Part shown: piece by piece, positions 5,281 to 45,298 of the stretch
How the letters are laid out: the number at the start of each line of letters is the position of its first letter
Position numbering within the stretch: position 1 is the stretch's first letter
Assembly (NCBI GenBank): GCA_963708045.1
Contig: OY970181.1
Location: forward strand, 579,740-643,739
Direction: 5' to 3'
Length of the DNA: 64,000 nucleotides
From: an uncultured bacterium
GTDB lineage: Bacteria; Patescibacteriota; Patescibacteriia; CAIQCM01
Program-made: the position numbers and the translations under genes
Notes under the pieces: model-generated
Seen by the model: the letters and a program-made list of their open reading frames with translations, nothing else
What the model was told of the DNA's origin: nothing
Database searches by the model: none

Positions 5281-5394
5281 AACCCTATTTGTTGTACTTT
5301 AGAACCACTTCGTTGGAGTCGAAGTCAGCAGAATGTTTGATGTTAGTTGGCAAAATACAATTTTAAAGCTAAATAAAGCGAGAAAAAATCGCTT

Positions 5395-5500: not shown

Positions 5501-5534
5501 GTGTAACATTATCCTCCAGTAAACGATTAACTAT

Positions 5535-6062: not shown

Positions 6063-6150
6063 AATTAGTAATAGAGATTAGAGATTGGAAATTAGATTTT
6101 GGAAGACGGATAACAAACTTCTAACATCCAATTTCTAATCTCAAATCTCT
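6062..6150. repeat. MITE/REP-like palindromic element, copy 2
   Basis: tagagattagagattggaaattagattttggaagacggataacaaacttctaacatccaatttctaatctcaaatctctaatc. The reverse complement of copy 3 is near-identical across the ~45-nt core. Confidence 0.55.
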
Positions 6151-6162
6151 AATCAAGTAAAA

Positions 6163-7221: not shown

Positions 7222-7312
7222 ATTTAAAAAAAGAGATTAGACCTTAGAGATTAGATGTTAGAAGATTGTGTCCGTCTTCTAAAATCTAATTTCCAATCTC
7301 TAAGATCATTCC
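7222..7312. repeat. MITE/REP-like palindromic element, copy 3 (inverted orientation)
   Basis: Its reverse complement is ggaaattagattttagaagacggacacaatcttctaacatc..., which matches the copy 2 core. Confidence 0.55.
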
Positions 7313-7322
7313 TGATTCCGTC

Positions 7323-7500
7323 TTTCATTTTGTTTTTAAAACAAAATGAAAGACGGAATCGGGATAAATCCCGTTTTCTTTAAAAAATAATTCCGCCGTT
7401 CTGGCGCAGGACTCTTTACACGAAATTTTTGCGTAAAGAGTCCTGCGCACTAAAGAGCGGCGGGCTTGATTCGTCAAAGGTTGAATCCCGCTCGCCGGGA
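7323..7500. repeat. Cluster of three near-perfect long hairpins in the 5' region of the giant surface-protein gene
   Basis: Hairpin 1 is ccgtctttcattttgtt-tttaaa-aacaaaatgaaagacgg (17-bp perfect stem). Hairpin 2 is cgggat-aaa-tcccg. Hairpin 3 is gcgcaggactctttac...gtaaagagtcctgcgc (16-bp perfect stem) nested in ccgccg...cggcgg. Confidence 0.45.
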
Positions 7501-7553
7501 AGTCACTCAAGTAACTTAACTATTCTTAAATAAAAAGAAAAAATTTCATCAAT

Positions 7554-10500
7554 ATGACAGATGCATTAAAACTGTCGTACGGTGTAATGAAGCGCTCCTT
7601 CACGGTTGCCGTGGTGATTGCGACCATTCTTTGGTCCGTTGCCGCGACTTTTGCCGTTGCCCCTCGCGCCGCTCATGCGGCGACCTCGGGTGACCTCGTG
7701 AAGGGCTCGCTCTCGGCTGTCTACTATGTAGGCTCCGACAGCAAGCGCTACGTTTTCCCGAACGACAAAGTGTACTTTACTTGGTACACCGATTTCTCCA
7801 CGGTTAAGAAAATTTCCGACACTGACTTGGCTGCCCTTACAATCGGCGGCAACGTTACTTACAAGCCAGGTGTAAAAATGGTCAAAATCCAGTCTGATCC
7901 TAAGGTTTACGCCGTCGGTCACGGTGGCGTTCTCCGCCCGATCGCTTCGGAAGCCGCCGCCTCCGCCCTCTACGGCTCCACCTGGAACAAAAAGATTGAC
8001 GATATCTCCGACGCCTTCTTTGTGAACTACACTGTTGGTTCGCAAATTTCGTCCGCTTCGGACTTTGTTATCGCCACTGAACAAGCCAACTCCACCTCAA
8101 TCAATACCGACAAGGGTCTTTCCGGCGCTGGCGCGCTTAACATCTCGCTCGCCTCGGACAACCCAGCTGGTTCAACACTTACCTGCAATGCTTCTGGTGT
8201 TAACTTCCTAAAAGTTAATCTCTCGGGCACGGGTACAGTTACTGGCCTCACCTTCCACCGCATTGGTGCTGGTGTTGCCGCTGACTTTAGCAATGTCTAC
8301 CTTTACGATGGAGACACTCGCTTGACCGTTGGCCGCTCGGTGACTTCTTCCGACAACTCGGTTACGTTCTCTAACTTGAACGTTGCCGTTTCCGGTTCAA
8401 AAGAACTCACTTTGGTTGCTGACCTTGCCGCCCTCACCGCCTCCACCGCAACCCCCCCCTCCGCTTGTGTTGCTCTTGCTGGCGACTCCAACGCTTTTGC
8501 GATCAATGCCGCGACCGATGTTGTTACCAACACGACCGTCGGCGGTACCTTCCCAATTGCGGGCGGTTACTTCTCAATCGCTGCTTCTAAGAGCGGTACG
8601 CTTGCCGTTACTCCGGGTTCTGCTCCGTCCAACCCAAAGGTTGGTCAGCAGGCTGCTGAACTTGCCAGCTTTAAGGTTCAGGCTGGTTCATCCGAAGACG
8701 TGATTCTTCGCCGCATCATTGTGACCAACGCGGGTTCTGCCCAGTTGGCCAACCTTGCTAACCTAAAGATTACGGATGCCGGTACAATCATCGCGCAAAA
8801 CCCGATTATTTCGGGAACGACCGCGACCTTTGTGCTTGCTGTCCCATACACTTTGGGCAAAGGCATTCAACGCACGCTCTCGCTCGTTGGCGACGTCCTC
8901 GCGGCTAACCGCGCTGGCGTTGACACGATCAAGTTCTACATTGACCAGACCTACGACGTCTACGCCACTGGTTCCACTTACGGAATGGGCGTGAACGTGA
9001 CCAACACCTTCACTACGGGCAACTCGCTCAGTATTGATGGCGGTCAGATCACTTATGCGTTTAATGGTCCGACAACCGGCAATATCTCGGTTGGCGCTAA
9101 CGATGCTAATCTCCTCAAGTTCGCGATTACTTCGCAGAACAATATTGAAGTGAAAAGCACGACCGTTCGTCTCACTTTTAGTGCTGACGTTTCGGCCGAT
9201 ATCGCTAATGTCACTGATATTAAAATCAAGAACGCCGACACCGGCGTTGTTGTCGCTGGTCCGTTTGACCTTTCGTCCTGGACTGGTTACACCGATGCTA
9301 CTTTCGTAACCGTAGACGCCACGCCGTCACAATGGTATGCCAAGACGTTCACCGATCGCTACGACGTTTCGTCGGGCAAAACGGTTAACTATGTTGTCTC
9401 GGCTGACATTTTGACCACTGGCACGGGTCTCGCCGCCAAATCCGTTACGGCGACCCTCGCCGCTCGCGTTGGCACCAACATCCGCAATATGGATTCCAAC
9501 CTGGATGTTGCCACAACCGATATCGTCCCGGCCTCTGCCCTCGCTGGCAATCCGCAGACGGTTAGCGCTTCTGGTTTGACCGTTGGTCTTGCGAGCTCGC
9601 CTTCAACAGCGACCGTAACCAAGGGTTCTACCGTTAACGCGGTGGGCATCAACTTTACCGCCGGTTCTGCGTCGGACGTTAAAGTTTCTCAAGTTAAGCT
9701 CTATGCTTACATCAACCTTATTAATGGTGATGAAGTCTTGGGCGTTTCGGATGTTGACAGCACAAGCGCGACTCACTATTCCGCTGACTTGGTTCAATCC
9801 GTTTCCATCTGGGACGGTACGACCCAGCTTGGCACCACGCAGTCGCCTTCGGCTGGTCTTCTGACCTTCTCTAACCTTGCGTGGACTATTCCCGCCGGCA
9901 CCACCAAGACGCTTGTTGCCAAGGTAACTTCCTCCAACAACGCGCCTTATGGAGCTCAAACCAACCACATTGTTATTGACTTAGTTGGTACGGGCGATGA
10001 CAACACCACGTCAGACATCGCCGCGACTGACAAGGACACCAACACTGTCTCGGCGACTTCTACAGCTTGGTCTTCTACACAAAGCCACTTGAACACCACG
10101 GCCGCCAATGACACTGCTTGGGGTACCAACGGCGCTCCAGCTGTTTATGACGACATTGTTGCTTCGGGTTCGCTTACTATGAGCCTTGATGGCGACACAC
10201 CAGTTACTTCCATTGTTACGGCCAACACTAACGACAACTCGGTCACCCGCGTTAAGTTTAACTCGGTGAACGAAGCGTTCTTGGTTACCCGTTTGACTGT
10301 GGAAAACGTTGGTTCTATCGCTTCCAGCCGCTCCATTACTTCCGTCCGCGTCTATGACAAAGATGGAACCTTGGTCTGCTCGGGCGCGCTTGATTCCGCG
10401 AACCGCTTGCGTTGTGCAAACGACGCCGGTCTCTTCACGGTAAATGGTAACCACACGGTTACCATCAAGACCAACCTTGCTCAGGAAGGCTCTGGTACAA

Positions 10501-11621
10501 CCGGCGCCAATTCCGGCGATAAGCCGAAAATGGCCGTCGTTGTTCCACAAGCCGATGATGCCGCTGATGTTTACACCGACGACATTAAGGTCGTTGGCGT
10601 TTCCTCGGGCACGGCTTTGGTTGACACAGACGTTGGCGGCGGTTCTTTGACCGTCTCCGACAACTTGCTTGCAACCAAGATCACCGTCGCCACCACCGAT
10701 ATTTCTGGTGGATCATTCGTAGTCGGTGATACTGTTACTCAGGGTAGCGCTACTGGCCGGATCGTATCGGTCACGGTAGTTTCCACCAACACTGTAATCA
10801 CTGTTGTTGACACTGCCGGCGCCGCGTTCACCGCGAGCGGTACTGATCTTGTTAGCACCTCTTCACCTGTTGCGACGGCCGCCACTGTTGGCGCCGTTGA
10901 CACCACTGTTGTGCTTGTCGGCGCTCAGGGCAATAGCTCGGTTATTCGTAAGACTCAACCGACCGTTGCGACTGTTGCTACATCAACAAATCTTATCAAC
11001 GGCGAACAGACTGTTTACCAATTCTCGGTAACATCCTCTTCCAACGCCGATGTTGCGATTCACCAGTTCAACCTCAATATGTCCCGCTACAGCGTAGCTG
11101 TTAATTCGTACCGTGTCTTTGAAAACGGTGCGCCAATTGACGCTTCGCTTTATCGCGTCTGCTCCGGTACTTCTACCGCCGCCCCTGTCTTTGTGGCCGG
11201 CGTTATGACTACTTGTTCAACAGAAGTGAGCGGAAGCAATATTGATTTGACGACCGTTGCTGGTATCGCCACGGGTGATACAACTAAGATTATCTCGGTT
11301 GTCTTTGGCACTGAACGTACGATTGCCGCCGGTACCACCAAGACCTATGCCATCAAGGCTACGGTTTCTGGAGCTATCTCGGGCGATTCATTGAGCCACG
11401 TTATGTCGGATGATGCGACGGAAACCAGCATTTCGGGCGCCAATACCGGCAATCTTGTGAACGTTGTTGCTGCCGCTGCTCCGAACTTCGTTTGGTCCGA
11501 CACCTCGGCTGATTCCCACAACACTGGGACGGCTGCCACTTTTGCCTCCTCTTCAACCGACTGGACCAATGGTTACTTGGTTAAAACCTTGCCAACCTCG
11601 TCTCAAACGCTTTCTCTCTAA
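7554..11621 (+). CDS. Giant secreted surface protein (1355 aa) with an N-terminal conserved ~110-aa module and long T/S/V/A-rich beta-repeat region
   Basis: Signal peptide MKRSFTVAVVIATILWSVAATFAVAPRAAHA. Residues ~46-160 (GSLSAVYYVGSDSKRYVFPNDKVYFTWYTDF...MVKIQSDPKVYAV...DDISDAFFVNYTVGSQI) are homologous to the C-termini of the 12470, 19934 and 21242 proteins. The remainder is low-complexity Thr/Ser/Val-rich. An internal poly-C(8) tract lies at 8452-8459. Confidence 0.8.
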   Translation: MTDALKLSYGVMKRSFTVAVVIATILWSVAATFAVAPRAAHAATSGDLVKGSLSAVYYVGSDSKRYVFPNDKVYFTWYTDFSTVKKISDTDLAALTIGGNVTYKPGVKMVKIQSDPKVYAVGHGGVLRPIASEAAASALYGSTWNKKIDDISDAFFVNYTVGSQISSASDFVIATEQANSTSINTDKGLSGAGALNISLASDNPAGSTLTCNASGVNFLKVNLSGTGTVTGLTFHRIGAGVAADFSNVYLYDGDTRLTVGRSVTSSDNSVTFSNLNVAVSGSKELTLVADLAALTASTATPPSACVALAGDSNAFAINAATDVVTNTTVGGTFPIAGGYFSIAASKSGTLAVTPGSAPSNPKVGQQAAELASFKVQAGSSEDVILRRIIVTNAGSAQLANLANLKITDAGTIIAQNPIISGTTATFVLAVPYTLGKGIQRTLSLVGDVLAANRAGVDTIKFYIDQTYDVYATGSTYGMGVNVTNTFTTGNSLSIDGGQITYAFNGPTTGNISVGANDANLLKFAITSQNNIEVKSTTVRLTFSADVSADIANVTDIKIKNADTGVVVAGPFDLSSWTGYTDATFVTVDATPSQWYAKTFTDRYDVSSGKTVNYVVSADILTTGTGLAAKSVTATLAARVGTNIRNMDSNLDVATTDIVPASALAGNPQTVSASGLTVGLASSPSTATVTKGSTVNAVGINFTAGSASDVKVSQVKLYAYINLINGDEVLGVSDVDSTSATHYSADLVQSVSIWDGTTQLGTTQSPSAGLLTFSNLAWTIPAGTTKTLVAKVTSSNNAPYGAQTNHIVIDLVGTGDDNTTSDIAATDKDTNTVSATSTAWSSTQSHLNTTAANDTAWGTNGAPAVYDDIVASGSLTMSLDGDTPVTSIVTANTNDNSVTRVKFNSVNEAFLVTRLTVENVGSIASSRSITSVRVYDKDGTLVCSGALDSANRLRCANDAGLFTVNGNHTVTIKTNLAQEGSGTTGANSGDKPKMAVVVPQADDAADVYTDDIKVVGVSSGTALVDTDVGGGSLTVSDNLLATKITVATTDISGGSFVVGDTVTQGSATGRIVSVTVVSTNTVITVVDTAGAAFTASGTDLVSTSSPVATAATVGAVDTTVVLVGAQGNSSVIRKTQPTVATVATSTNLINGEQTVYQFSVTSSSNADVAIHQFNLNMSRYSVAVNSYRVFENGAPIDASLYRVCSGTSTAAPVFVAGVMTTCSTEVSGSNIDLTTVAGIATGDTTKIISVVFGTERTIAAGTTKTYAIKATVSGAISGDSLSHVMSDDATETSISGANTGNLVNVVAAAAPNFVWSDTSADSHNTGTAATFASSSTDWTNGYLVKTLPTSSQTLSL

Positions 11622-11718
11622 TCATTTGATTAGCTAAGTTAAAAGCGTAATTAACTTTTGACTTAAGAAAGCGAAGTTTGACGCGATGACCTAAAAAGCA
11701 TCGTTACCAAACGGCAAA

Positions 11719-11748
11719 CCCCTCCGATGATACATCGGAGGGGTTTTG
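11719..11748 (+). terminator. Rho-independent terminator
   Basis: cccctccgatg-atac-atcggagggg followed by tttt. Confidence 0.7.
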
Positions 11749-11753
11749 CGTTA

Positions 11754-11797
11754 TTTACACCCTCCCCCGAGTGCGGGGGAGGGGTTGGGGGAGAGGG
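11754..11797. repeat. GC-rich hairpin repeat (ccctcccccgagtgcgggggaggg family), left direct repeat flanking the DUF559 cassette
   Basis: ttacaccctcccccgagtgcgggggaggggttgggggagaggg. It is almost identical to 12262-12306. Related copies occur at 14953-14982 and, inverted and degenerate, at 12212-12250. Confidence 0.7.
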
Positions 11798-11808
11798 CAA
11801 CTCGTCTA

Positions 11809-12186
11809 ATGGATGTTATAATAATTTCTATGGCACCGATAATAAATACCAATAAATTATTGTCTCGTCGTCGTGATTTGCGCAAAAATCAAACAGAAGC
11901 TGAAAGATTATTTTGGGAAAAAGTAAGATGCGAAAGGTTTTTTGGTCTAAAGTTTAAACGTCAATACAGCGTCGGGTCGTATATTTTAGATTTTTATTGC
12001 CGTGAAAAAAATTTGGCGATTGAAATTGATGGTTCCCAACATATTAAAAATGCTGACTATGATAAAGAGCGAACTTTGTATTTAGAAAATTTTGGGCTTA
12101 CCGTTTTACGTTTTTGGAATAATGAAGTTATGAATAATATGGATGGAGTTTTGGAGGCGATACGGATTAAACTAGAAATTGAATAA
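11809..12186 (+). CDS. DUF559 / Vsr-like (very-short-patch-repair-type) endonuclease domain protein
   Basis: The RRDLRKNQTEAERLFWEKVR...YILDFYCREKNLAIEIDGSQH...LENFGLTVLRFWNNEV motif set is diagnostic of DUF559. The gene is AT-rich relative to its neighbours. The ORF-track start (11746) would include the REP hairpin, so ATG 11809 is chosen, with an alternative at 11830. Confidence 0.8.
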   Translation: MDVIIISMAPIINTNKLLSRRRDLRKNQTEAERLFWEKVRCERFFGLKFKRQYSVGSYILDFYCREKNLAIEIDGSQHIKNADYDKERTLYLENFGLTVLRFWNNEVMNNMDGVLEAIRIKLEIE

Positions 12187-12261
12187 AGTAAACATACTCC
12201 GCCACGCAACCCTCACCCGGCCTTCGGCCACCCTCTCCCACACTTGGGCGAGGGTTTTACG

Positions 12262-12306
12262 TTTACACCCTCCCCCGAGTGCGGGGGAGGGGCTGGGGGA
12301 GAGGGT
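12262..12306. repeat. GC-rich hairpin repeat, right direct repeat flanking the DUF559 cassette
   Basis: tttacaccctcccccgagtgcgggggaggggctgggggagaggg. It is a near-identical direct copy of 11754-11797. Confidence 0.7.
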
Positions 12307-12469
12307 GTCGTTGGTGGTGTATACCCAAAATAATTGTGGATAACTAGAAAAATATTTAATTCTTAAAAAGGAGTATAATAATAATCGGACAAGTTGAAGT
12401 CCGTAAAAATTTATATTTTATCCGCGGGATTAACCGCGATCAATTTTAAATCTTAAATAAAAAAGATTT

Positions 12470-14893
12470 ATGAATGTTCTTCTAAATAATACGGCAAAGG
12501 TAACCTCGCGGGTTGCTTTTTCTGTAATGGCCATTGCGTTGGCTGTTTTATTTCTCTCCGGCATTAAGCCGGCATTAGCCCTATCTGGCGAAGGCGCGGC
12601 GACCATTGCCGACACTACCGGAACTCCGGGTGTTGAACCGGCAGCCGCGGGCGTTACTGCCGAACGTGCGGTATCCGACGTATTCACAATCGTCTTAACG
12701 GTCGGTGCAAGTGGAATTGCCATAGATGCCGCTAATCCGATTTTTACCATCCCGACCGGTTTTACCGCTCCACAGGCGGCGCCGGAAGCTGCTCTTTTAG
12801 ACGTTGATGTTGATGGTGAGTGGTTTGTTGTCGGTGCTGGCGACTCTTGTTCGGTCAATCTGGCGGGGACCACAAACGCTACTGGACAGATGCTTTCGCT
12901 TGATGTTGACGGGGCGTGTGTTACGACCAATACCATCACCGTTACTTACAAAGGGACATCGTCCACTGTAATGACTGCTGCGCCGGTCGTAATAATTACC
13001 GATGATACATCTGGCCCACCTGATCCAGTGGCAATCACTGCACCGCCAACAATCACGGTAAGCGACACGGTTGCTCCAACTGCAACCGATGCCCCAACCG
13101 CCGCCGCTGGTGCGGTTATTAACGATGCCGAAGAAGCTGCCGGTGTTGCCGTTGTTGTCCCACTTGGTACAAGTGGTGCGATTGCGGGCGATACGCTGGC
13201 TTTGTATCTTGGTGGCTCGGCTTTCCCAACACCTTTAACCCACGTTCTTACGGGTGGTGAAATTACGGCAACTGAATATACATTTACCGTTGCATCTGGT
13301 CAACTTGGCGCTGACGGCGCCGGAAAGAGTATCACCGCGTTGGTAACTGATGCCGCCGGTAATCCGGGTACAGCGAGCGCCGCCCTTGTCCTTTCTTTGG
13401 ACACGGTTGCGCCGGTTATTTCCGCGGTTACTCCTTTAACTGGAACATCTAACAACGCCGCACGAACGGTTGGTTATACTTTTGGCGAAGCGGCAGTTGC
13501 CGATGCTGGCACAAAAATATCCTTTATCCGCACTGGTGGCACGGCTGACACGCAAGGAACACATATCTATCTCTTAACTGGCGCTGAATTAACCGCGGCG
13601 GCACATACGATCGCGATTTCGGTTTTAAACGCCGATGCCGTTTCTTTTGCCTTAACTAACGCTTTGGTTGATGGTGCAATTTATACAACTACGATTGACG
13701 CCAAAGATGCCGCCGGTAACGCTTCCACAACAATAACAACATTGCTTGTTACCTATGACACTACGCCGCCAGCAACACCGGTTTCGAGTATTGCTGCGGG
13801 TACTTATCCAAGGTCTCAAAACGTTGCTCTGACCTCAACCGGTTCCAGCTCTATTCGTTACACGGTAAACGGCGATGCGATTGCTGATTGTTCTGCCGGC
13901 ACTCTTTTCGCCGATTACGTCGTTGTTTCTTCATCGCAAACGGTTAAAGCCCGCGGTTGCGATAGCGCCGGAAATATTTCCGTCGCAACAATGTCCACTG
14001 CCTATGTCATTACTAATGGTACAAGCGGCGGTAGTGGTGGATCAACCTATGTTCCGCCTCCAGTAGTTAACGTAATCTCGCCAAACGGCGGCGCGAGTTA
14101 CGCGCCAGGTTCCGTAGTCAGTGTTTCTTGGACTTCTGGCGATGGTGCTTTCGCTAAATATAATGTTTCTTACTCAGACAACAACGGCGCCACCTGGACG
14201 GTGATCGCGAGCAATGTAATCTCCACTAACGCGAGCTGGATAATGCCAAATACCGCCACAACTACGGCCAAGGTTAAAGTTGATGGTTACAATTCAACCG
14301 GTTCGCTTCTTGCTTCTGATTCTTCCAATAGCGTCTTTACAATTACCGGCACTGGCGCTCCGGCCGAAACTCCGGTTGTGCCGGAAACTCCAGCAACTCC
14401 CGCGCCAGTCGTTGACCCGACAGTTAGCGGCTCGTATAACGCCGCCGATGCCAAAAACAACAACCCGACAATCAAGGACGATAAGGGTATTGTCGCCGTT
14501 CCTGCCGGGACAACGGTTTATTGCACCGCCGGAACGCTCATTAAAGGCTCGCTCTCATCGGTTTACTACTGCGGCGCCGATGGCAAGCGTTATGTCTTCG
14601 TGAACGACAAGGCATACTTTACCTGGTACAGCGACTTTACCACGGTTAAAACCATTTCCGACGCCGATATGGCGATGATCCCGCTTGGTGGCAACATCAC
14701 TTATCGCCCAGGCACGAGAATGGTCAAAATTCAATCGGACCCCAAAGTTTATGCCATCTCACGTGGTGGAACTTTGCGCTGGGTTAGCTCCGAAGCAATT
14801 GCCGTGCAACTCTTTGGCGCCGACTGGGCCAAGATGATTGATGATGTTTCTGACGCTTTCTTTGTGAACTACAAAATTGGCGCTCAGATCTAA
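12470..14893 (+). CDS. Secreted surface protein (807 aa) with bacterial Ig-like domains and a C-terminal conserved ~110-aa module
   Basis: Signal peptide plus TM-like segment VAFSVMAIALAVLFLSG. Big-like motifs include TALVTDAAGNPGTASAALVLSLDTVAPVISAVTP. The C-terminus GSLSSVYYCGADGKRYVFVNDKAYFTWYSDFTTVKTISD...MVKIQSDPKVYAI...DDVSDAFFVNYKIGAQI is about 60% identical to the N-terminal module of the 7554 protein. Confidence 0.8.
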   Translation: MNVLLNNTAKVTSRVAFSVMAIALAVLFLSGIKPALALSGEGAATIADTTGTPGVEPAAAGVTAERAVSDVFTIVLTVGASGIAIDAANPIFTIPTGFTAPQAAPEAALLDVDVDGEWFVVGAGDSCSVNLAGTTNATGQMLSLDVDGACVTTNTITVTYKGTSSTVMTAAPVVIITDDTSGPPDPVAITAPPTITVSDTVAPTATDAPTAAAGAVINDAEEAAGVAVVVPLGTSGAIAGDTLALYLGGSAFPTPLTHVLTGGEITATEYTFTVASGQLGADGAGKSITALVTDAAGNPGTASAALVLSLDTVAPVISAVTPLTGTSNNAARTVGYTFGEAAVADAGTKISFIRTGGTADTQGTHIYLLTGAELTAAAHTIAISVLNADAVSFALTNALVDGAIYTTTIDAKDAAGNASTTITTLLVTYDTTPPATPVSSIAAGTYPRSQNVALTSTGSSSIRYTVNGDAIADCSAGTLFADYVVVSSSQTVKARGCDSAGNISVATMSTAYVITNGTSGGSGGSTYVPPPVVNVISPNGGASYAPGSVVSVSWTSGDGAFAKYNVSYSDNNGATWTVIASNVISTNASWIMPNTATTTAKVKVDGYNSTGSLLASDSSNSVFTITGTGAPAETPVVPETPATPAPVVDPTVSGSYNAADAKNNNPTIKDDKGIVAVPAGTTVYCTAGTLIKGSLSSVYYCGADGKRYVFVNDKAYFTWYSDFTTVKTISDADMAMIPLGGNITYRPGTRMVKIQSDPKVYAISRGGTLRWVSSEAIAVQLFGADWAKMIDDVSDAFFVNYKIGAQI

Positions 14894-14916
14894 GTAGAAG
14901 ACAGAAAATAAAAAAT

Positions 14917-14950
14917 TAAAAACACCTCCGATTAATTTCGGGGGTGTTTT
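14917..14950 (+). terminator. Rho-independent terminator
   Basis: acacctccg-attaatt-tcgggggtgt followed by tttgttttt. Confidence 0.65.
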
Positions 14951-14981
14951 GTTTTTACCCTCGCCCGAGTGCGGGAGAGGG

Positions 14982-15063
14982 GAGTTCGTTTCGCCGTAAA
15001 TAACTTTAACGTAATAATACAGAACTCTCCCCACCCTCCCTTTTACCAAAGGGAGGACTAAGA
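14982..15063. repeat. 83-nt structured intergenic repeat, copy 1
   Basis: gagttcgtttcgccgtaaataactttaacgtaataatacagaactctccccaccctcccttttaccaaagggaggactaaga. It contains the ggagttc/gaactcc stem and the ctccctttt-acc-aaagggag hairpin. It is identical to 15197-15279. Confidence 0.7.
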
Positions 15064-15196
15064 CTTTTTGCGCTTTGTCACTTTCTTTGTAAAAAAGATT
15101 TAATTTGAGAATTTTGTATTTGCCCCTTCTTTGCATAATAGCAGGGTTTTATCTGTAACCAGTCTTAGTCCACTCTTTGCAAAAGAGGGGGTAGGG

Positions 15197-15279
15197 GGAG
15201 TTCGTTTCGCCGTAAATAACTTTAACGTAATAATACAGAACTCTCCCCACCCTCCCTTTTACCAAAGGGAGGACTAAGA
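15197..15279. repeat. 83-nt structured intergenic repeat, copy 2
   Basis: Direct repeat of 14982-15063, separated by ~130 nt of unrelated sequence. Confidence 0.7.
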
Positions 15280-15414
15280 TTGTTGTTGAATATTTGTTAA
15301 TAACAATTGTGTTCTAAAAGTGGTATAATAAAAAACCGGACAAAAAGTCCGTGAAATTAAATTTAAAACAGGGGATAAATCCCTGAATGATTTTAAATCT
15401 TAAGAAAAAGATTT

Positions 15415-18400
15415 ATGAACGCAGTTTCAAAATTAAAATTTTTTAGCGCTAACCACAAGGGGTTGGTTTTTGCTTTTTGTTTTGTTGTGGCCGTGCTTGC
15501 CTTTGTTGCCCTGCCGACGCATAAGGCAATGGCGGCGAACGGCGACATCGTTGTCAATGTTAAAGAAGAGCTGGGAAGCAATCTTGCTGGCGCGACAGTT
15601 GAAATTAATTGTAGCGGCGGCAGTTTTGTGGCCAACGTCGCCCCGACTGACGCTTCAGGTAATGTGACTTTTTTGGTGGCTGACCTTGGTGATTCTGGCG
15701 GCGCGACTCTTTATCACACGGCCGATTGCGACACTAATGCCGAGAGTATCACTTATCGTGTGTCCAAAGATGGATACGTTACTCAAACTACCGGTGGTGC
15801 TGACACATATTTAACGGGAGCCGAAACCGACAAAAATATCACCGGTGTTCAGTTCGCCTACAAACTCACAGCTGTCACAACCGAAGGACCGGGGACAAAT
15901 ATCACAGCGACACTTTCTTCGCTGGCGGTTGGCGCTTCTGGTGCAACCGACGCCTGTACTTTAAATGGCGGCGCTTGGTATTGTCCGGTAACACTCGCCC
16001 ATAGCGTGGGGCCGCTCATTGGCGTGCCAACGCAAGATGGTTATGTACAAGCCAATTACAATTTAGTTACTGGCACAACGCGTAGCGCTAACGCCGACGC
16101 GCAAGTTTCGGACACAATCAGCACGGTTCGTTTTTCCTATAAAATAACATCGGCGACGAGCGAAATCGGCACTAACATCACGGCAATTTTGACAACACTG
16201 AGAGTTGGCGACGATACGGCCACGAACGCTTGCACTTTCTCGGTTGACGCTTGGTATTGTCCAGTCATTCTCGCCAATAGCAACGGTACGCTTAAGGCCG
16301 ACCCAGTTAAAGAAGGTTATGTTCAAGCTGACCACAATTTGGTTCTGGGCACAACGCGCGTCGCGAGCTCTGACGCTCAAATAACTGATTCTTTCACTGG
16401 TGTTCAATATGCATACAAAATAACCTCTGCAACTTCTGAAGCTTTAGCAGTCAATCTTATTTCTACATTAAGCGCGCTTGCCGTTGGTGACGCGACCGCG
16501 ACCAACGCTTGTGAAACCTCGGGTGGCGCTTGGTACTGTCCGGTTGTTCTCGCAAATAGCGACGGCACGCTTCTTGGAGTTCCTACTCAAGACGGCTATG
16601 TGCAAACAAATTACAATTTGGTAATCGGTACAACTCGTGTTGCTAATAATGCATTGCAGATATCGGACACGATCGTTAATGTTCAATACGCTTACAAAAT
16701 TACTTCCGTTACAACCGAAGGCCCAGGCACCGAGCTCCGAGCCACCTTGTCTTCGCTCACGGTTGGCGATGATACCGCCAAAACCGCCTGTGCATTAAAC
16801 GGCACGACTTGGTATTGCCCGGTTATCCTTGCGAACAGCAATGGCACACTTGTCGGCGTGCCAACGCAAGACGGGTACGTATCGGGTGATGATAATTTGG
16901 TAATTGGTACAACGCGCGTTCTTAATACGGCGGCGCAAGTTTCGGACACAATTAGCACCGTTCGGTTTGCTTATAAAATAACCGCGGTTACGGCTGAGGG
17001 TCCGGGAACAAATATTACTGCGACACTGGTTTCGCTTGCAGTTGGCGACGATACAGCTACGACACTTTGTACTTTCAATGTTGCGACTTGGTATTGTCCG
17101 GTTATTCTTGCAAATAGCGATGGTACATTAATTAGTATCCCGATCAAAGACGGTTATGTGCAGGCTAATTATAATTTGGTTCTAGGCACGACGCGTCTTA
17201 CGGCCGCTGCGGCGCAAGTTTCAGATACAGTAACTGGTGTTAGATTTTCTTATAAAATCACTTCGGCGACGAGCGAAATCGGCACCAATATTACCGCAAT
17301 TCTTACGACGCTCGCGGTTGGCGACGATACGACAACAAACGCCTGTGCATTCTCGGTTGATGCTTGGTATTGTCCAGTCGTACTCGCGAACAGCAATGGC
17401 ACGCTAAAAGCCGATCCGGTTAAAGAAGGCTATGTTCAAGCCGACCATAATTTAGTTCTAGGCACAACGCGTCTTGCTAATCTAGACGCTCAAATTGTTG
17501 ATTCGTTTACTGGTGTTCAGTTTGCTTACAAAATCACTTCCGTAACTGCCGAAGGTCCTGGCACCAACCTTACCGCCACCCTCGCTGGTTTAGTTGTTGG
17601 TGATGTTACGGGAACCGATACCTGTATTTTAAACGGCGGCGCTTGGTACTGCCCAGTTGTTCTCGCAAATAGCGACGGCACACTTCTCGGCGTGCCAACG
17701 CAAGATGGTTATGTGGCGGCAAATAATAATTTAGTGATTGGTACGACTCGTGGCACAAATGCTGCCGCCCAAGTTTCTGACACAATTACTGGTGTTGATT
17801 TCGCTTACAAAATCACCGCCGTTACCACCGAAGGGCCTGGTACCAACCTTACAGCGACACTTTCTTCGCTCGTGGTTGGTGACGATACTGGTACAACGGC
17901 CTGTGCTCTTAACGGTGGTGCTTGGTATTGTCCGGTTTTGCTTGCAAATAGCGACGGCACGCTTATCGGCGTGCCAACGCAAGATGGTTACGTCGCGGCT
18001 AATAACAATTTAGTGATTGGCACGACGCGTATTACTAACGCTGCGGCGCAAGTTTCTGACACGATTAGCACGGTTAAATTCTCATACAAACTTACAGCCA
18101 TTACCACCGAAGGGCCTGGTACCAACCTTACAGCGACACTTTCTTCGCTCGTGGTTGGTGACGTGACGGGAACCAACGCTTGTATTTTAAATGGTGGCGC
18201 TTGGTATTGTCCGGTTTTGCTCGCGAATAGCGACGGTACGCTTATCGGCAATTTGGTTGAAGACGGTTATGTGCAGGCAAACTATAATTTGGTTAATGGC
18301 ACAACGCGCGCCGCGGCCGGCGATCCACAGCGCACTGAAACTATTAACACGGTTCAATTCGCTTATAAAATTACAGGAGCGACGACAGAAATTAGCACCG

Positions 18401-19929
18401 ACATTACCGCAATTTTAACAACGCTCGCGGTTGGCGATGATTCCGCAACCAATGCTTGTACCTTTTCGGTTGATGCTTGGTACTGTCCAGTTATTCTCGC
18501 GAACAGTAATGGCACGCTAAAAGCTGATCCAGTTAAAGAAGGTTATGTTCGGGCTGACCATAATTTGGTTCTAGGGACGACGCGCCTAACAAATACTGCT
18601 GCTCAAATTTCCGACACATTTACCGGTGTTCAATTTGCTTACAAAATCACTTCCGTAACCGCCGAAGCTATTGGCACTAACCTAACAAGCACATTAACGG
18701 GACTGCTTGTCGGAGATGCGACCGCAACCAATACCTGTGTTCTTAATACCGGCGCTTGGTACTGTCCAGTTGTTCTCGCAAATAGCGATGGCACACTTCT
18801 TGGTGTACCAACGCAGGATGGCTATGTTCAAGCAAATCATAATTTAGTTACTGGCACGACGCGCGTTGCAAATACTGATGCTCAGCGTTCAGATACAATC
18901 ACTAACGTTTTATTTGCTCTTAAAGTTACAATCCAGCGCGAAGGCGACAACGCGGCTGTGACCGGTTCTACGGTTACCGCTGACGGTCCGACGCTTTACG
19001 ACGTGACTTGCGCCGAAAATGGAACAACCGGCATTCATTATTGCGTTATTCCCGTGGCACAAACAGGAACGATTACGCGAATTGTTAATCCTTCGTTTAT
19101 TACAAAAACACTAAGCTATACCGACCGCACAACGCAAATCGGCGGCCAAGGTACGATGACCGCGGTTTTGAGCACTTCGGGCGATATCACTCCGCCGACG
19201 ATTACCGGCCAGACTCCGGCCGATGGCGCGACCGGCGTTTCAATTATTGTTTCGCCAACCATAACCTTTAACGAAGCAATGGATGCGGCGACGTTAAACG
19301 GTGGCACGATTCAAATTCGCAAATATTCCGACGATACTGCGGTTTCCGCTAGTCTTCTCTATAATCCTTCAACCTTCGTCGTGACGCTAACCCCGGTTGC
19401 AAGTCTTGTCTACAACACGCAATATTATCTCTATGTTGTTGGTGCAAAAGATGCCGCGGGCAATTCGGTAAGCACCGACTACGCAGCTGGCACAAAGAGC
19501 AGTCACGAATTTACAACGGTTGCCGAAGCCAACGGTTCGCTCGCGGTCACGGGCATTGATCGTATTAGCACCTATGCCGTTACTGGTGGCGATTATGCCA
19601 ATGGTTGGAAATGGACTTTCCACGTCACCGTTCCGACCACCGAAACATCATTTAAAATGAAATTCACTGACCTTGTGAGCGGAACTCATTCTATTGCGGC
19701 GGCAGCGAATATGCGTTTCTTTTCTTCGCAATCATCTAACGCGTACGATGAAAGCACGGCAATTAGCATTACTGTTGCCGAAGCTTATAGCTCAACAATG
19801 ACACTCAACGCTGATCTTAGTGCTGGCACAGCCGGTCGGCAAATAGACGTTACGATTGAGGCGCGCGTACCAACAGGAACGGCGGCTGGGTCATACTCAA
19901 CCAGTTACGGGATTCAAACGACGATTTAA
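15415..19929 (+). CDS. Giant secreted tandem-repeat surface protein (1504 aa): ~11 x 93-94-aa Cys-containing repeats plus a C-terminal SbsA-type Ig-like domain
   Basis: Signal peptide VFAFCFVVAVLAFVALPTHKAMA. The repeat consensus is YKIT..T.E..GTN.TA.L..L.VGD.T.T.AC.....AWYCPV.LANS.GTL...P..(D/E)GYV....NLV.GTTR......Q.SDT...V.FA. The C-terminus TPPTITGQTPADGATGVSIIVSPTITFNEAMD...YYLYVVGAKDAAGN is typical of an S-layer Ig-like domain. Confidence 0.8.
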   Translation: MNAVSKLKFFSANHKGLVFAFCFVVAVLAFVALPTHKAMAANGDIVVNVKEELGSNLAGATVEINCSGGSFVANVAPTDASGNVTFLVADLGDSGGATLYHTADCDTNAESITYRVSKDGYVTQTTGGADTYLTGAETDKNITGVQFAYKLTAVTTEGPGTNITATLSSLAVGASGATDACTLNGGAWYCPVTLAHSVGPLIGVPTQDGYVQANYNLVTGTTRSANADAQVSDTISTVRFSYKITSATSEIGTNITAILTTLRVGDDTATNACTFSVDAWYCPVILANSNGTLKADPVKEGYVQADHNLVLGTTRVASSDAQITDSFTGVQYAYKITSATSEALAVNLISTLSALAVGDATATNACETSGGAWYCPVVLANSDGTLLGVPTQDGYVQTNYNLVIGTTRVANNALQISDTIVNVQYAYKITSVTTEGPGTELRATLSSLTVGDDTAKTACALNGTTWYCPVILANSNGTLVGVPTQDGYVSGDDNLVIGTTRVLNTAAQVSDTISTVRFAYKITAVTAEGPGTNITATLVSLAVGDDTATTLCTFNVATWYCPVILANSDGTLISIPIKDGYVQANYNLVLGTTRLTAAAAQVSDTVTGVRFSYKITSATSEIGTNITAILTTLAVGDDTTTNACAFSVDAWYCPVVLANSNGTLKADPVKEGYVQADHNLVLGTTRLANLDAQIVDSFTGVQFAYKITSVTAEGPGTNLTATLAGLVVGDVTGTDTCILNGGAWYCPVVLANSDGTLLGVPTQDGYVAANNNLVIGTTRGTNAAAQVSDTITGVDFAYKITAVTTEGPGTNLTATLSSLVVGDDTGTTACALNGGAWYCPVLLANSDGTLIGVPTQDGYVAANNNLVIGTTRITNAAAQVSDTISTVKFSYKLTAITTEGPGTNLTATLSSLVVGDVTGTNACILNGGAWYCPVLLANSDGTLIGNLVEDGYVQANYNLVNGTTRAAAGDPQRTETINTVQFAYKITGATTEISTDITAILTTLAVGDDSATNACTFSVDAWYCPVILANSNGTLKADPVKEGYVRADHNLVLGTTRLTNTAAQISDTFTGVQFAYKITSVTAEAIGTNLTSTLTGLLVGDATATNTCVLNTGAWYCPVVLANSDGTLLGVPTQDGYVQANHNLVTGTTRVANTDAQRSDTITNVLFALKVTIQREGDNAAVTGSTVTADGPTLYDVTCAENGTTGIHYCVIPVAQTGTITRIVNPSFITKTLSYTDRTTQIGGQGTMTAVLSTSGDITPPTITGQTPADGATGVSIIVSPTITFNEAMDAATLNGGTIQIRKYSDDTAVSASLLYNPSTFVVTLTPVASLVYNTQYYLYVVGAKDAAGNSVSTDYAAGTKSSHEFTTVAEANGSLAVTGIDRISTYAVTGGDYANGWKWTFHVTVPTTETSFKMKFTDLVSGTHSIAAAANMRFFSSQSSNAYDESTAISITVAEAYSSTMTLNADLSAGTAGRQIDVTIEARVPTGTAAGSYSTSYGIQTTI
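15853..18925 (+). repeat. Intragenic tandem repeat array, unit 279-282 bp, with a 4-unit (~1116 bp) higher-order period
   Basis: Unit starts fall at about 15853, 16135, 16417, 16693, 16972, 17251, 17530, 17809, 18088, 18367 and 18646. Units 2, 6 and 10 (TSATSEIGTNITAILTTL...FSVDAWYCPVILANSNGTLKADPVKEGYVQADHNLVLGTTR) are near-identical. Units 3, 7 and 11 are likewise similar. DNA stretches 17825-17885 and 18100-18160 are nearly identical. Confidence 0.8.
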
Positions 19930-19933
19930 ATAA

Positions 19934-21079
19934 TTGCTTAAGCGCAAAAAAATGAACAAATATATAAAAATTTTGTTCGGTTTCGCAGTGGTGTTTCTTG
20001 GTCTTGTTGCGGGTGGTGTGGTTTTGGCCTCAGAAACAACTGGCGATTTAAATACAGGATTAGATACGGGCGTTGATGGAATTGTCGTGGCACCGCCGAG
20101 CGCCGCGCCCATTGCTGGCACTTATAGTTCCGCGCTCGCGATCACGCTTACGGCAACCGGTGCGACCAGTATGCGCTATTCAATCAATGGAACTGATCCG
20201 ACTTGTTCCACGGGGATAGTTTATGTTGAAGAAATTGCTGTTGCATCATCAAGAATAATTAAAGCAATTTCTTGTTATCCAGGCGGTATTGCTTCGTCGG
20301 TTGCCACGTTTATTTATACGATCTCGTCCTCGTCGGGCGGTGGCGGGGGTGGGGGAGGCGGGGGAAATTTTATACCCGCACCAACGCCGGTTACTGGAAA
20401 ATTTAGCCGCACCGAAGCTAACGCCAAACTTCCGCCAAATTTTCCGGTTGATTCGCTTGTAAAATTAGCTGATGACAAAAATCCTAAAACCGATGTTGAT
20501 AGTGCTGTTTATTACATCGGGCTTGATGCCAAGCGTCATTCGTTCATTAATAATCATATTTTCTCTAGCTGGTATAGTAATTTTGATGATATAAAAATCA
20601 TAGACGCAACCACACTTGCTTCTATTACGCTTGGTACGCCAATTCTTTCGCGTCCAGGCACGTGGTGGGTAAAAATCGCTTCCGACCCAAAGACATATTA
20701 TGTTGAACCGGGGAGCTACAAGCTTCGTTGGATTAAAGACGAAGCCACAGCGCTTGCTTTGGGTGGGTCGGATTGGAACAAAAATATTCTTGACGTTGGC
20801 GTAAGTTACTTTGCTAACTATTCAAGCGGTGATCCGATTGATATGACATATTTGGCCAAACTTTGGCCAGCTGGCGCTTTGCTAAAACTCGCAAGCGATA
20901 CCACGATTTGGTACGCGACTGGTACAGAACGCCGGCGGTTTGCGTCAAAAAGCGCTTTTTCCGCGAATGGTTTTCAAGATCGCTTTATTGAATTAAATAA
21001 TAAACCAGGCTGGCAATATCTTCCGACAGGCGCGGACATTACCGGTTTTGAAGACGCGCTCTTTAGCCTTCAACACTAA
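19934..21079 (+). CDS. Secreted protein (381 aa) with an Fn3-associated-like domain, a poly-Gly linker and the conserved ~110-aa module
   Basis: Signal/TM FGFAVVFLGLVAGGVVLA. The Fn3_assoc-like segment is APIAGTYSSALAITLTATGATSMRYSINGTDPTCS. A G12 linker follows. The shared module is DSAVYYIGLDAKRHSFINNHIFSSWYSNFDDIKIID...WVKIASDPKTYYV...ILDVGVSYFANY, plus a partial second copy. Confidence 0.75.
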   Translation: MLKRKKMNKYIKILFGFAVVFLGLVAGGVVLASETTGDLNTGLDTGVDGIVVAPPSAAPIAGTYSSALAITLTATGATSMRYSINGTDPTCSTGIVYVEEIAVASSRIIKAISCYPGGIASSVATFIYTISSSSGGGGGGGGGGNFIPAPTPVTGKFSRTEANAKLPPNFPVDSLVKLADDKNPKTDVDSAVYYIGLDAKRHSFINNHIFSSWYSNFDDIKIIDATTLASITLGTPILSRPGTWWVKIASDPKTYYVEPGSYKLRWIKDEATALALGGSDWNKNILDVGVSYFANYSSGDPIDMTYLAKLWPAGALLKLASDTTIWYATGTERRRFASKSAFSANGFQDRFIELNNKPGWQYLPTGADITGFEDALFSLQH

Positions 21080-21120
21080 CGTAGCGTATAGGGGTTAGGG
21101 TATAGAGTATAGAAAAAAGA

Positions 21121-21151
21121 AAAAACCTCCGATTTTTATCGGAGGTTTTTT
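21121..21151 (+). terminator. Rho-independent terminator embedded in REP-like inverted repeat
   Basis: aaaaacctccg-atttttat-cggaggtttttt. It is flanked by the inverted arms tataggggttagggtatag / ctagcccctaaaccctataccctag. Confidence 0.7.
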
Positions 21152-21241
21152 ATTCTAGCCCCTAAACCCTATACCCTAGACGCTAATAGTAAGTTGAAAT
21201 AATCTTCTTTACGGAGTATTCTTATTAAACAATGCTATCCT

Positions 21242-23512
21242 ATGAAAAATAAAATCCTCCCCATTTTTTTATTTGTTTTCACGGCTTTTTTGTTTGGTCA
21301 TCAAGCCAAGGCCGCAACCAAAGAATGGCTTGCTAATGCGCCGGGCGATCTGGCTTCGGTTGCGACAAATTGGGCAAGCGGCGTTTTGCCGTCTTCGGGC
21401 GATGATCTTGTTTTTCCTTCAGGCGCAACAGTTGTATGGGACATTAGCGGCGTGATGCCGAGAAATGTCACGACCCAAGCCAATGTCTCGCTCAAAGCTC
21501 CTTTGGCTTTGATGGGCGACTTTAAAGTAAGCGGAGGGAAGTTACTTTCAAACAGTAATGCTATTTCGGTTGGCGGAGCGGTTATTCTTTCGGGTGGCGC
21601 GGCGGATTTTGGCGCCTCGTCAATTAACGTGAGTGGCGATTGGAAATTTTCTGGCGGCACTGCCGTCCTTTCATCGGCCACGGTAAGTTTTACCGGAAGC
21701 GGGGATAAATTAATTTATTCATCGGGAAATAGTTTTGGTAAATTATCAATCAATGCGCCGGGCGTGACCGTAAAATTAGCAGATGATTTTGAAAGCAATG
21801 ATAAAATAACCGTTTCTGATGGAATTTTTTCGTTAGCCGGAAAAACAATGACTTTGACGGGTGGTCTTGATCTTATAGGTGGAACAGTGACGCTCTCTGG
21901 AGGAAAAATAAATTTTGTCGGCACCAAAGGGAAACCGTTTTCAATTTCCGGCGGAAGTTTTAACGTTGATGCTGGCGGTACGGTTGTTTATGCGCCGACC
22001 GCTGGAAGTATCACCGTCGCGGCGGCCGATTATTATGATTTAGAACTTTCTGGAAATGCGGTTTTTTCTCTTTCGGGAGGAACAACAGTAAACGGAAAAT
22101 TAATAATTGGCGTGGGCGCAACGCTTTCGCCTAGCTCATTTACGATTTCGGCGAAAGGACAGGTAGAAAACAGTGGAAAGATTTTGGGGGATAAGGGAAT
22201 AGACACGGCCGTCGGCTCGATAAAATTTATTAACGACAATTTCGCGGAAATTTTTTCGTTTACGAAAAGCTCAGGCGTTGTTCGGGTAAGTATTGAAAAT
22301 ATCGGTAAAAATTTTATTGGCAGTGTGGCAGAAACGCTTGCTGGGCTAACTTTAACGACAATGTCAGGTGACAAAGAGATAATTAACGCCGTGGAAACCA
22401 GCAATTCAACCGGCGTTTTTGTAACGCCGGCGATTGTTGTTCACGAGGCGGCAGTGGAACAAGGAAACGGTCAGCTCGAGGTATCGCAGAATGATATAAT
22501 TTTTGCGACTTACGTTGACCCACAAAACTCGGCGCGTAAAAAAAGCGCCGAAATTACCGTGAGCGCGACGACCTCTTCAAATACCGGCATTCCGCAAATT
22601 GTCGCTAAGCCAATTCTTACCAACTGGAGCTCGGTAACGTCGTCCTCAGGAACAACTTATTCGGCACATATTATCTGGGAAACTGATATTGTGAGTTCTT
22701 CGGCAATAACGGTTTCTGGTGGCAGTTTTAGTTTGCCGGTTTCTGCTGGCAGCCTAACACCAACTTTAACCCACGATGTTTTGGTTTCCGGTTTGTCGCG
22801 CGGCTACGTGTATTCTTATAAAGTAAGTTCAATGTCGGCTGATGGCAAAAGCGTTACGAGCGATTCGGCAAAGTTTACGGTTATTGTTGCTGGCGATCGG
22901 ATTAAAACGGCTAATTCGTCGGCGGTGTATTGGTACCTAAACGGCAAGCGAAACGTATTTTCTAATTTTTTCGTTTATGATTCTTGGTTTCCCGATTTTA
23001 AAAATGTTGTAACGATTCCAGCCGAACAAATGTCCGATATTCTAATTGGTCGGGGTATTCCCGTGCGTGCTGGCACATATCTTGTAAAAATTCAGTCCGA
23101 CCCGCGGGTTTATGCGGTTTTGCCGTTTGGAAAATTAAGCTGGGTGCAAACCGAAACGCAAGCGATCGCTCTTTACGGAGAAAATTGGTCAAAGCGGGTA
23201 ATTGATATGGATGTGGCTTTCTTTGGTTCCTATTCATATGCCGATCCGATGGTAGACGGAAAAATGCCCGACGGGTTTGTTTATTCCGCCGGTGGGGAAA
23301 ACGGAATTTATTTGGAAAATAGTTTGCATCGCTTAAACGACGCCGCGCTTCCGGTAAATGGTATAGATAAACGTTTTATTTCCCCGGTTGTTTTAAGTAT
23401 GATTACGAACGCGACAAATGGCGGTATTTATTATGGTTACGCACCTGCAGCAAATACAGTTTTTAAAGACGGAAATTCCGAAGTTGTCGCGCCAGCGCGC
23501 ATAGAAAAATAA
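21242..23512 (+). CDS. Secreted surface protein (756 aa) with Gly/Ser-rich beta-helix-like region, an Fn3-like domain and the conserved ~110-aa module near the C-terminus
   Basis: Signal peptide ILPIFLFVFTAFLFGHQAKA. The Fn3/purple-acid-phosphatase-N-like segment is TSSSGTTYSAHIIWETDIVSSSAITVSG. The shared module is NSSAVYWYLNGKRNVFSNFFVYDSWFPDFKNVVTIP...LVKIQSDPRVYAV...IDMDVAFFGSYSYADP. Confidence 0.75.
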   Translation: MKNKILPIFLFVFTAFLFGHQAKAATKEWLANAPGDLASVATNWASGVLPSSGDDLVFPSGATVVWDISGVMPRNVTTQANVSLKAPLALMGDFKVSGGKLLSNSNAISVGGAVILSGGAADFGASSINVSGDWKFSGGTAVLSSATVSFTGSGDKLIYSSGNSFGKLSINAPGVTVKLADDFESNDKITVSDGIFSLAGKTMTLTGGLDLIGGTVTLSGGKINFVGTKGKPFSISGGSFNVDAGGTVVYAPTAGSITVAAADYYDLELSGNAVFSLSGGTTVNGKLIIGVGATLSPSSFTISAKGQVENSGKILGDKGIDTAVGSIKFINDNFAEIFSFTKSSGVVRVSIENIGKNFIGSVAETLAGLTLTTMSGDKEIINAVETSNSTGVFVTPAIVVHEAAVEQGNGQLEVSQNDIIFATYVDPQNSARKKSAEITVSATTSSNTGIPQIVAKPILTNWSSVTSSSGTTYSAHIIWETDIVSSSAITVSGGSFSLPVSAGSLTPTLTHDVLVSGLSRGYVYSYKVSSMSADGKSVTSDSAKFTVIVAGDRIKTANSSAVYWYLNGKRNVFSNFFVYDSWFPDFKNVVTIPAEQMSDILIGRGIPVRAGTYLVKIQSDPRVYAVLPFGKLSWVQTETQAIALYGENWSKRVIDMDVAFFGSYSYADPMVDGKMPDGFVYSAGGENGIYLENSLHRLNDAALPVNGIDKRFISPVVLSMITNATNGGIYYGYAPAANTVFKDGNSEVVAPARIEK

Positions 23513-45292: not shown

Positions 45293-45298
45293 TTAGGT

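Follow-up and report, generated by a model that had tools for sequence, protein, structure and literature searches.

Is the long tandem array in a secreted protein of an uncultured patescibacterium the product of a recent and unstable duplication, or an old structure held in place by selection? The question is raised by an open reading frame (ORF) at positions 15415-19929 (+) of a 64,000-nt section of contig OY970181.1; the whole of this stretch is referred to here as the window, and positions are given in its coordinates unless another locus is named. The ORF encodes a 1504-aa protein, the array protein, which is identical to P0001, from a contig of 1,188,223 bp. An initial annotation of the same DNA attributed the repeats to recent block duplication. 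The analysis presented here favours a different account, in which the array is probably the disulfide-stapled stalk of a Sec-secreted cell-surface protein, with an old, selectively kept four-module super-repeat.

Organization of the array

The array protein contains exactly eleven WYCP[VI] motifs, 92 or 93 residues apart, each with a second cysteine nine residues upstream (C-x8-C), in agreement with the eleven tandem Cys-pair repeats of the initial annotation. A hidden Markov model (HMM) built from the units places the 11 canonical copies at aa 148-1167, corresponding to nt 15856-18915, and the span first proposed (15853-18925) was thus essentially right. The unit size needs correction: it had been given as 93-94 aa (279-282 bp) and is in fact 92-93 aa (276 or 279 nt). 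Unit lengths run 93-92-93-93 aa per block, with units 2, 6 and 10 shortened to 92 aa by a one-residue deletion after a conserved Glu. Four units make up a super-repeat block of 371 aa, or 1113 nt; the four-unit repeat reported earlier is real, and only its length, put at about 1116 bp, was wrong. Tandem Repeats Finder (TRF) at default settings detects units 7-9 only (17507-18376, period 279, 78-81% matches). With HMM boundaries, the blocks are:

15856-16968, + strand: block I, units 1-4 (15856-16134, 16135-16410, 16411-16689, 16690-16968)
16969-18081, + strand: block II, units 5-8 (16969-17247, 17248-17523, 17524-17802, 17803-18081)
18082-18915, + strand: block III, three-quarters of a block, units 9-11 (18082-18360, 18361-18636, 18637-18915)

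The four positions within a block are denoted a, b, c and d, so that units 2, 6 and 10 are the b-type modules.

Four-unit periodicity

The periodicity that a dot-plot was expected to reveal is evident on self-comparison of the DNA: ungapped identity peaks at lags of 1113 (72.8%) and 2226 (71.6%), and a lag of 279 gives 55%. At the protein level the mean identity between units is 76% at lags of four and eight units, compared with 60-69% at other lags, and permutation of the unit order gives p=0.0007 for this signal. The four-unit higher-order repeat is real, and it is carried mainly by units 2, 6 and 10; without this class the periodicity is marginal (p=0.04). Protein identity among these three units is 83-90% and DNA identity 76-82%, and they share 10 class-specific alignment columns (two of which are edge artefacts of the unit boundary), as against two columns for the runner-up among the 165 unit triples that can be formed. 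The class-specific residues lie in loops and at the hairpin turn described below. Units 3, 7 and 11 are pairwise 68-78% identical in protein, barely over a background of 54-70%, and 68-76% in DNA. The term near-identical, which had been applied to both sets, does not describe either of them. Identities between adjacent units are, in order, 55, 60, 63, 66, 64, 59, 85, 74, 52 and 61%.

Age of the super-repeat and recombination

Among units 2, 6 and 10 the proportion of synonymous sites that differ (pS, Nei-Gojobori) is 0.54-0.69, equivalent to a synonymous divergence (dS) of about 1-1.9, while the corresponding nonsynonymous proportion (pN) is 0.06-0.09 and the ratio dN/dS is 0.05-0.10. Across all unit pairs pS lies between 0.48 and 0.73. 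Third-codon-position identity in the 2/6/10 class is 0.48-0.59, where composition alone would give 0.28. Since synonymous sites are near saturation, the block triplication is old rather than recent, and the protein sequence has been held by purifying selection since then, most tightly in the b-type module. Growth of the array by duplication of a four-module block, as first suggested, is supported by these comparisons; its supposed recency is not. At the block lag, exact matches reach no more than 26 nt and DNA identity is 75%, in contrast to the module-bearing locus L004, where a four-module block of 1062 nt is repeated at 98.3% DNA identity with an exact run of 609 nt. The L004 block lies at 5361-7400 within an ORF at 3738-11963 of that locus, and is either genuinely recent or an assembly duplication.

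DNA identity among units is 59-82% overall and 59-78% between neighbours. The longest exact repeat anywhere in the array is a tract of 63 nt shared by units 8 and 9:

17822-17884, + strand: 63-nt tract in unit 8, identical to 18101-18163
18101-18163, + strand: partner copy of the tract in unit 9, identical to 17822-17884

This is far longer than expected for a pair of units that are 75% identical overall (permutation p<2e-4), and the tract looks gene-conversion-like, a trace of past exchange. To this extent the earlier description of the array as prone to recombination finds weak support; elsewhere the array offers almost no recombination substrate. Given so little exact repeat, frequent slippage or homologous recombination is unlikely. 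Collapse in a short-read assembly, a concern of the initial annotation, is likewise unlikely, because exact repeats are at most 63 nt long and no two units are the same. The broader notion that the array is an artefact, being chimeric, collapsed or expanded during short-read assembly, draws on a real general risk for repeats and on nothing direct in this locus. We regard it as extremely improbable, as the 11 units are all distinct with a maximal exact repeat below typical read length, the frame is open over 4515 nt with strictly regular 93- or 92-aa units, the codon-level divergence fits purifying selection, and the contig extends over 1.19 Mb.

The same data bear on a second alternative, that of a stalk of variable length. 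In Periscope Proteins (SasG with its G5-E repeats, Rib, and the SHIRT domains of Sgo_0707; PMC8201768) similar DNA repeats recombine, so that the number of units varies by strain and modulates projection from the cell; here, the assembled count might then also be wrong. The array protein resembles these proteins in being a secreted surface protein with tandem small beta domains and very short linkers, and in belonging to a family whose members differ in array size (from 1 to about 20 modules among homologues). The tract shared by units 8 and 9 records a past intragenic exchange, block duplications recur in the family, with one recent case in L004, and the gene lies in a variable island and is the single member of its 90% cluster, as detailed below. 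Periscope candidates were, however, picked for tandem repeats longer than 50 aa that are at least 80% identical (PMC8201768), and while units of 92-93 aa agree with the first of these properties, the 52-85% protein identity of adjacent units, with one pair alone reaching 80%, does not agree with the second. DNA identity of 59-82%, near-saturated synonymous sites and a longest block-lag match of 26 nt indicate an old duplication, and genome and metagenome scans turned up no close strain that carries the gene. The module family is also unrelated to those of the Periscope Proteins, and the array protein has neither an LPXTG-type anchor nor a recognisable N-terminal ligand-binding head. Variation of this kind is therefore a rather unlikely explanation of the array.

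Fold of the module

Single canonical units give no Pfam match even at E<=10 and no NCBIfam match, and a profile search of PDB sequences was also empty. An alignment of 56 units from the array protein and its homologues shows five invariant columns (G26, C34, C43, G62 and R76) and seven that are near-invariant (E10, W41, Y42, V45, Y63, V64 and Q83). From this alignment AlphaFold2 (AF2) produces an all-beta model of the single module with a predicted local distance difference test (pLDDT) score of 96.9 and a predicted template-modelling (pTM) score of 0.88; the strands comprise residues 2-9, 22-27, 30-33/35-37, 40-43, 55-59, 68-70 and 84-91. Modelling of one repeat unit had been proposed in the initial annotation as a check; in the model the two cysteines flank a hairpin with a two-residue turn.

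A Foldseek search of the PDB with this model gave no match under E=1e-3. Closest were the transthyretin-like domains of carboxypeptidases D, N and M (1qmu, 5aq0, 2nsm and 1uwy; E 0.065-1.4, TM 0.41-0.51), and a library of viral structures yielded weak matches only, one of them annotated as carboxypeptidase regulatory-like. The module may thus be a distant transthyretin-like sandwich, but these matches are weak leads and do not demonstrate membership. It shares with the CarboxypepD_reg family (PF13620; 1qmu, 5aq0) a small sandwich of about seven beta-strands and a (D/N)GY(V) strand motif, in addition to the structural matches. It differs in that canonical units have no Pfam match, and the only hit, to the N-terminal cap described below, scores 19.3 bits against a gathering threshold of 32.3. 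Neither a C-x8-C hairpin staple nor the WYCPV motif is a known feature of the PF13620 family.

As the linkers between units are only about three residues long and the first and last strands (2-9 and 84-91) are at opposite ends of the module sequence, the array of seven-stranded sandwiches may be extended and rod-like. Isopeptide or ester cross-links of the CnaB type were considered and rejected, since the module has no invariant Lys + Asn/Asp + Glu or Thr + Gln + His triad; K3 is not invariant across the module family and there is no conserved His.

The structural matches also raise the possibility of a multivalent adhesin, in which the modules bind a ligand such as host-envelope glycans and the b-type module provides a distinct specificity at regular spacing, so that the array would be more than a passive spacer. 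Expansin, CBM31, CBM20 and CBM48 appear among the fold matches at similarly weak scores, class b is strongly constrained (dN/dS 0.05) with its specific residues in loops and the hairpin turn, and the partner gene encodes chitobiase-type CHB_HEX_C_1 and Fn3_assoc domains, with glycoside hydrolases nearby. All of the structural matches are, however, at E 0.03 or worse with TM about 0.5 or less, and the invariant residues G26, C34, C43, G62 and R76, together with W41, Y42 and Y63, look like parts of a structural core rather than a binding site. We therefore consider a binding function of this kind unlikely, though less so than a stalk of variable length.

The cysteine pair

By secondary structure assignment (DSSP) of the AF2 model, C34 lies across from C43 in the hairpin 35-37/40-43, which has a two-residue turn. 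Their register would correspond to a non-hydrogen-bonded pair, the favoured hairpin site for a cross-strand disulfide. Both cysteines are invariant in 56/56 aligned units. Of the 493 modules counted in 127 proteins of the family, both cysteines are present in 425 and absent from 28; about 10 of the 493 score as single-Cys, most of these being one-column alignment shifts that still hold both residues. The two cysteines thus appear to be kept or lost together, as a bonded pair predicts, and this provides independent support for a predicted Cys34-Cys43 disulfide stapling the beta-hairpin.

Domains flanking the array

The remaining parts of the array protein are as follows:

15415-15534, + strand: predicted signal peptide, aa 1-40, read from the translation
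15535-15855, + strand: divergent N-terminal cap module, aa 41-147, by hhalign against the module profile
18916-19182, + strand: C-terminal cap, aa 1168-1256, a divergent module that hhalign aligns to the profile with 86% probability (E=5e-6)
19183-19518, + strand: Big_5 bacterial Ig-like domain, aa 1257-1368 (Pfam PF13205)
19519-19926, + strand: conserved C-terminal domain, aa 1369-1504, ending ...GSYSTSYGIQT, by sequence comparison

The predicted signal peptide has a basic n-region, a 19-residue hydrophobic core and a putative cleavage site A38-M39-A40|A41. By profile comparison, both flanks of the array are divergent copies of the repeat module. The N-terminal cap aligns with an hhalign probability of 71% over its C-terminal half and weakly matches CarboxypepD_reg (E=0.0015, 19.3 bits, cut-off 32.3), and the C-terminal cap retains the Cys pair as C-x10-C. 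The family profile counts 13 module stretches in the protein.

Big_5, the only Pfam domain recognised, is well above the gathering threshold (E=6.4e-18, 65.9 bits vs 23.6) and is confined to the C-terminal region, outside the repeats. The domain that follows it is common to P0003-P0007, P0010 and P0011; it has no match in Pfam, NCBIfam or PDB sequences, and a search for homologues with it returned seven short fragments only. The predicted signal peptide, Big_5 and the neighbourhood of secreted proteins support the description of the product as a surface protein in the initial annotation.

SbsA-type S-layer proteins typically carry Big_5 domains, and the array protein can be envisaged as the subunit of a lattice or fibril resembling an S-layer, with the four-module period as the lattice spacing and the b-modules as lateral contacts. 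Besides Big_5 itself, the homologue P0016 carries SLH domains, and a position-specific module kept across super-repeats resembles the super-repeats of the titin A-band. The nearest relatives lack this gene at the syntenic locus, which is unexpected for a core envelope component, and the module family is very rare (123 representatives). We consider the proposal very unlikely.

Interpretation of the array

Taken together, these observations are best accommodated by the stalk introduced at the outset. It would consist of 13 serial modules of about 93 aa (11 canonical units and two divergent caps), followed by Big_5 and the C-terminal domain. The array grew long ago by triplication of a four-module block [a-b-c-d], and since then purifying selection has held the protein, most strongly at the b-module in every fourth position. 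The super-repeat periodicity would then be a conserved structural feature and not a fresh, unstable duplication. Attachment to the surface may occur through the C-terminal domain, the co-transcribed partner protein, or both, and the protein may act in contact with other cells or surfaces, with the b-modules as periodic contact sites.

Several points weigh against this account. The module matches known folds only weakly (best E=0.065, TM 0.41-0.51), and AF2 modelling of units 6-8 in tandem, with a sliding-window alignment, reached a pLDDT of 41 and a pTM of 0.29. The 64-kb window showed no gene for a thiol oxidase. Classes a, c and d can be told apart only weakly (p=0.04 once class b is removed), and for this reason the period-4 pattern may be history kept by generic constraint, without functional periodicity.

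Genomic neighbourhood

The array gene and the gene that follows it are bracketed by two hairpins:

14919-14950: strong terminator-like hairpin of the upstream gene, 13-bp stem
15300-15329, + strand: promoter-like site, ATAACA-18-TATAAT with a TG extension (10/12 in a consensus scan; a consensus match only)
19934-21079, + strand: partner gene, secreted product with CHB_HEX_C_1/Fn3_assoc (Pfam) and a 113-aa C-terminal domain
21120-21151, no strand: palindromic terminator-like hairpin, 14-bp stem flanked by A and T runs, which closes the two-gene unit

The two hairpins share the core ACCTCCGAT, a 9-mer that occurs three times in the window, each time in these hairpins, compared with 0.22 occurrences expected. 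The partner gene starts 4 nt past the stop of the array gene. At L009 the gene for P0003 is likewise followed by a CHB_HEX_C_1/Fn3_assoc gene (15065-16369 of that locus), which ends in PG_binding_1.

The C-terminal domain of about 113 aa in the partner protein is common to three secreted proteins around the array gene, the partner included, at 14555-14890, 20501-20839 and about 22900-23300, in genes at 12470-14893, 19934-21079 and 21242-23512, respectively. Copies are 47% and 34% identical to each other, have the motif YYxGxDGKR(Y/H)xFxN...SWY...RPGT..VKIxSDPK.Y and give no Pfam match. Because PG_binding_1 occupies this position in the L009 partner gene, the domain may be an uncatalogued wall-binding domain.

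The window is bacterial, with genes for DNA polymerase III delta', MreB, GlyRS, ribosomal protein L10, RRF and TIM, and the neighbouring DUF4015 hydrolase has relatives that bear the names Patescibacteria, Uhrbacteria and Parcubacteria. In the nearest relatives, whose DUF4015 protein is about 70% identical, the downstream synteny is kept (a 757-aa protein, DUF4015, RDD, RNase_H_2, GATase and UvrD) and the module protein is absent: L011 and L012 have housekeeping genes at the position of the array gene, and L013 has only a homologue of the window gene at 12470-14893. A 1054-aa Big_5 protein in L013, encoded beside the conserved block of synteny, was considered as a shorter orthologue of the array protein and rejected, since it is without modules and matches that same window gene. 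With no module gene at the syntenic locus of its nearest relatives, the array gene belongs to a variable island that encodes secreted proteins. The GC content of the gene is unremarkable (0.47-0.49).

The secreted-protein island spans 7554-23512. Directly upstream of it, at 5535-7221, are an extracytoplasmic function (ECF)-type sigma factor (Sigma70_r2/r4) and a DUF5667 protein, which could be a dedicated regulator pair for the island. The first ORF of the island, 7554-11621, encodes 1355 aa without a Pfam match and lies in the one part of the window where GC content is raised (0.53 vs about 0.47; GC skew -0.13). Further downstream, an envelope-related cluster at 43760-52663 includes a GT2-like glycosyltransferase, DUF4012, MreB, a GT4 glycosyltransferase and a 590-aa protein with cohesin and Big_13 domains. 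A tRNA cluster at 59845-60884 (+ strand) comprises Thr-GGT, Tyr-GTA, Thr-TGT and Trp-CCA.

Distribution and growth of the module family

A profile search of 1.84 billion representative proteins found 123 that bear the module at E<=1e-3 (82 at 1e-10). The median is three modules per protein, and nine proteins have at least ten. The surrounding architecture differs between members. P0003-P0007 combine the module with Big_5 and the same C-terminal domain as the array protein; the module occurs together with SLH domains in P0016, a Peregrinibacteria protein, with Big_1/Invasin_D3/FlgD_ig in L004, and with a C-terminal transmembrane helix in the archaeal P0009 and P0015. The contig of P0009 is genuinely archaeal, as it carries ribosomal proteins S6e, L24e, S28e and L7Ae, aIF2-gamma and Hjc; the presence of the module in archaea rests on L008 and on record titles. 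That of P0003 (L009) is bacterial, with MurJ, LepA, SecG and RNase J.

The closest relatives of the array protein are 50% identical to it, have 17-19 strong modules and are on contigs labelled Undinarchaeota, a label unconfirmed from the flanks; in L002 the flanking genes have no Pfam matches, so that an archaeal origin is not confirmed from them. A genome scan with the full array protein found three loci, none of them close (best 50% identical), and a metagenome scan found four at 36-39% identity with no strain-level relatives. A tblastn search of phage and plasmid collections with three units gave no match. The 90% cluster of the array protein contains only itself, compared with 28 cluster-mates for the GlyRS of the same genome (55557-56939). 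The housekeeping core is widely sampled, while the surface gene is either lineage-specific or fast-evolving.

Each unit of the array protein resembles its fellow units more than it does any unit from another protein, and in the arrays of L001-L003 identity decays with distance, without a period of four; the array therefore expanded within this lineage. Duplicated blocks are found in other members as well. A five-module block (446-449 aa) is duplicated in P0006 (aa about 276-1030; 97%), P0003 (72%), P0004 (61%) and P0005 (43%), a pattern that suggests independent re-duplication or concerted evolution in different lineages. Four-module blocks occur in P0008 (72%) and L004 (99%), and lags of two to five modules in L002 and L003. 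From these comparisons, block duplication looks like the usual mode of growth of the module family.

Comparison with known surface proteins

Modules at equivalent positions that are more alike than neighbours are also seen in the titin A-band and in the G5-E alternation of SasG (PMC4458895). The array protein differs from these systems in being prokaryotic and extracellular, with only 2.75 super-repeats and one of four positions clearly distinct. An adhesin of Mobiluncus mulieris has cross-linked Ig-like repeats, with disulfides among the reported cross-links (PMC10619420). Both proteins have a long array of Ig-like modules, each with an internal cross-link (here predicted), but the modules described here conserve a Cys pair only and have no invariant Lys/Asn or Thr/Gln/His set. 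Giant surface proteins are typical of bacteria of the candidate phyla radiation (CPR), such as Vampirococcus lugosii (PMC8080830). The likeness extends to the great size of a predicted envelope protein, to a bacterium with some 1.2 Mb of genome and to a presumed role in host contact, whereas the V. lugosii proteins use PKD, DUF11, integrin and fibronectin domains and the array protein uses an uncatalogued module. Most worthy of note are the module family and its presence in both bacteria and archaea.

Implications

The array does not overturn current understanding. It carries a caution, in that a clear higher-order repeat is not in itself evidence of recent duplication, hypervariability or mis-assembly. 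A wider reading, which we put forward only tentatively and consider possible rather than probable, is that the WYC module is an undescribed extracellular building block shared by ultra-small host-dependent bacteria and archaea, exchanged horizontally and expanded in blocks into host-contact stalks, with the b-module in every fourth position as a periodic binding or assembly site. The lineages concerned would be Patescibacteria (the window and L009), DPANN archaea (L008) and the loci labelled Undinarchaeota (L001-L003). The family is uncatalogued, and it adds a confidently foldable module to the known building blocks of prokaryotic surface proteins. Since the module is found in giant proteins of both bacteria and archaea, with different anchors, it is a useful marker of surface and host-contact proteins in uncultured lineages with small genomes.

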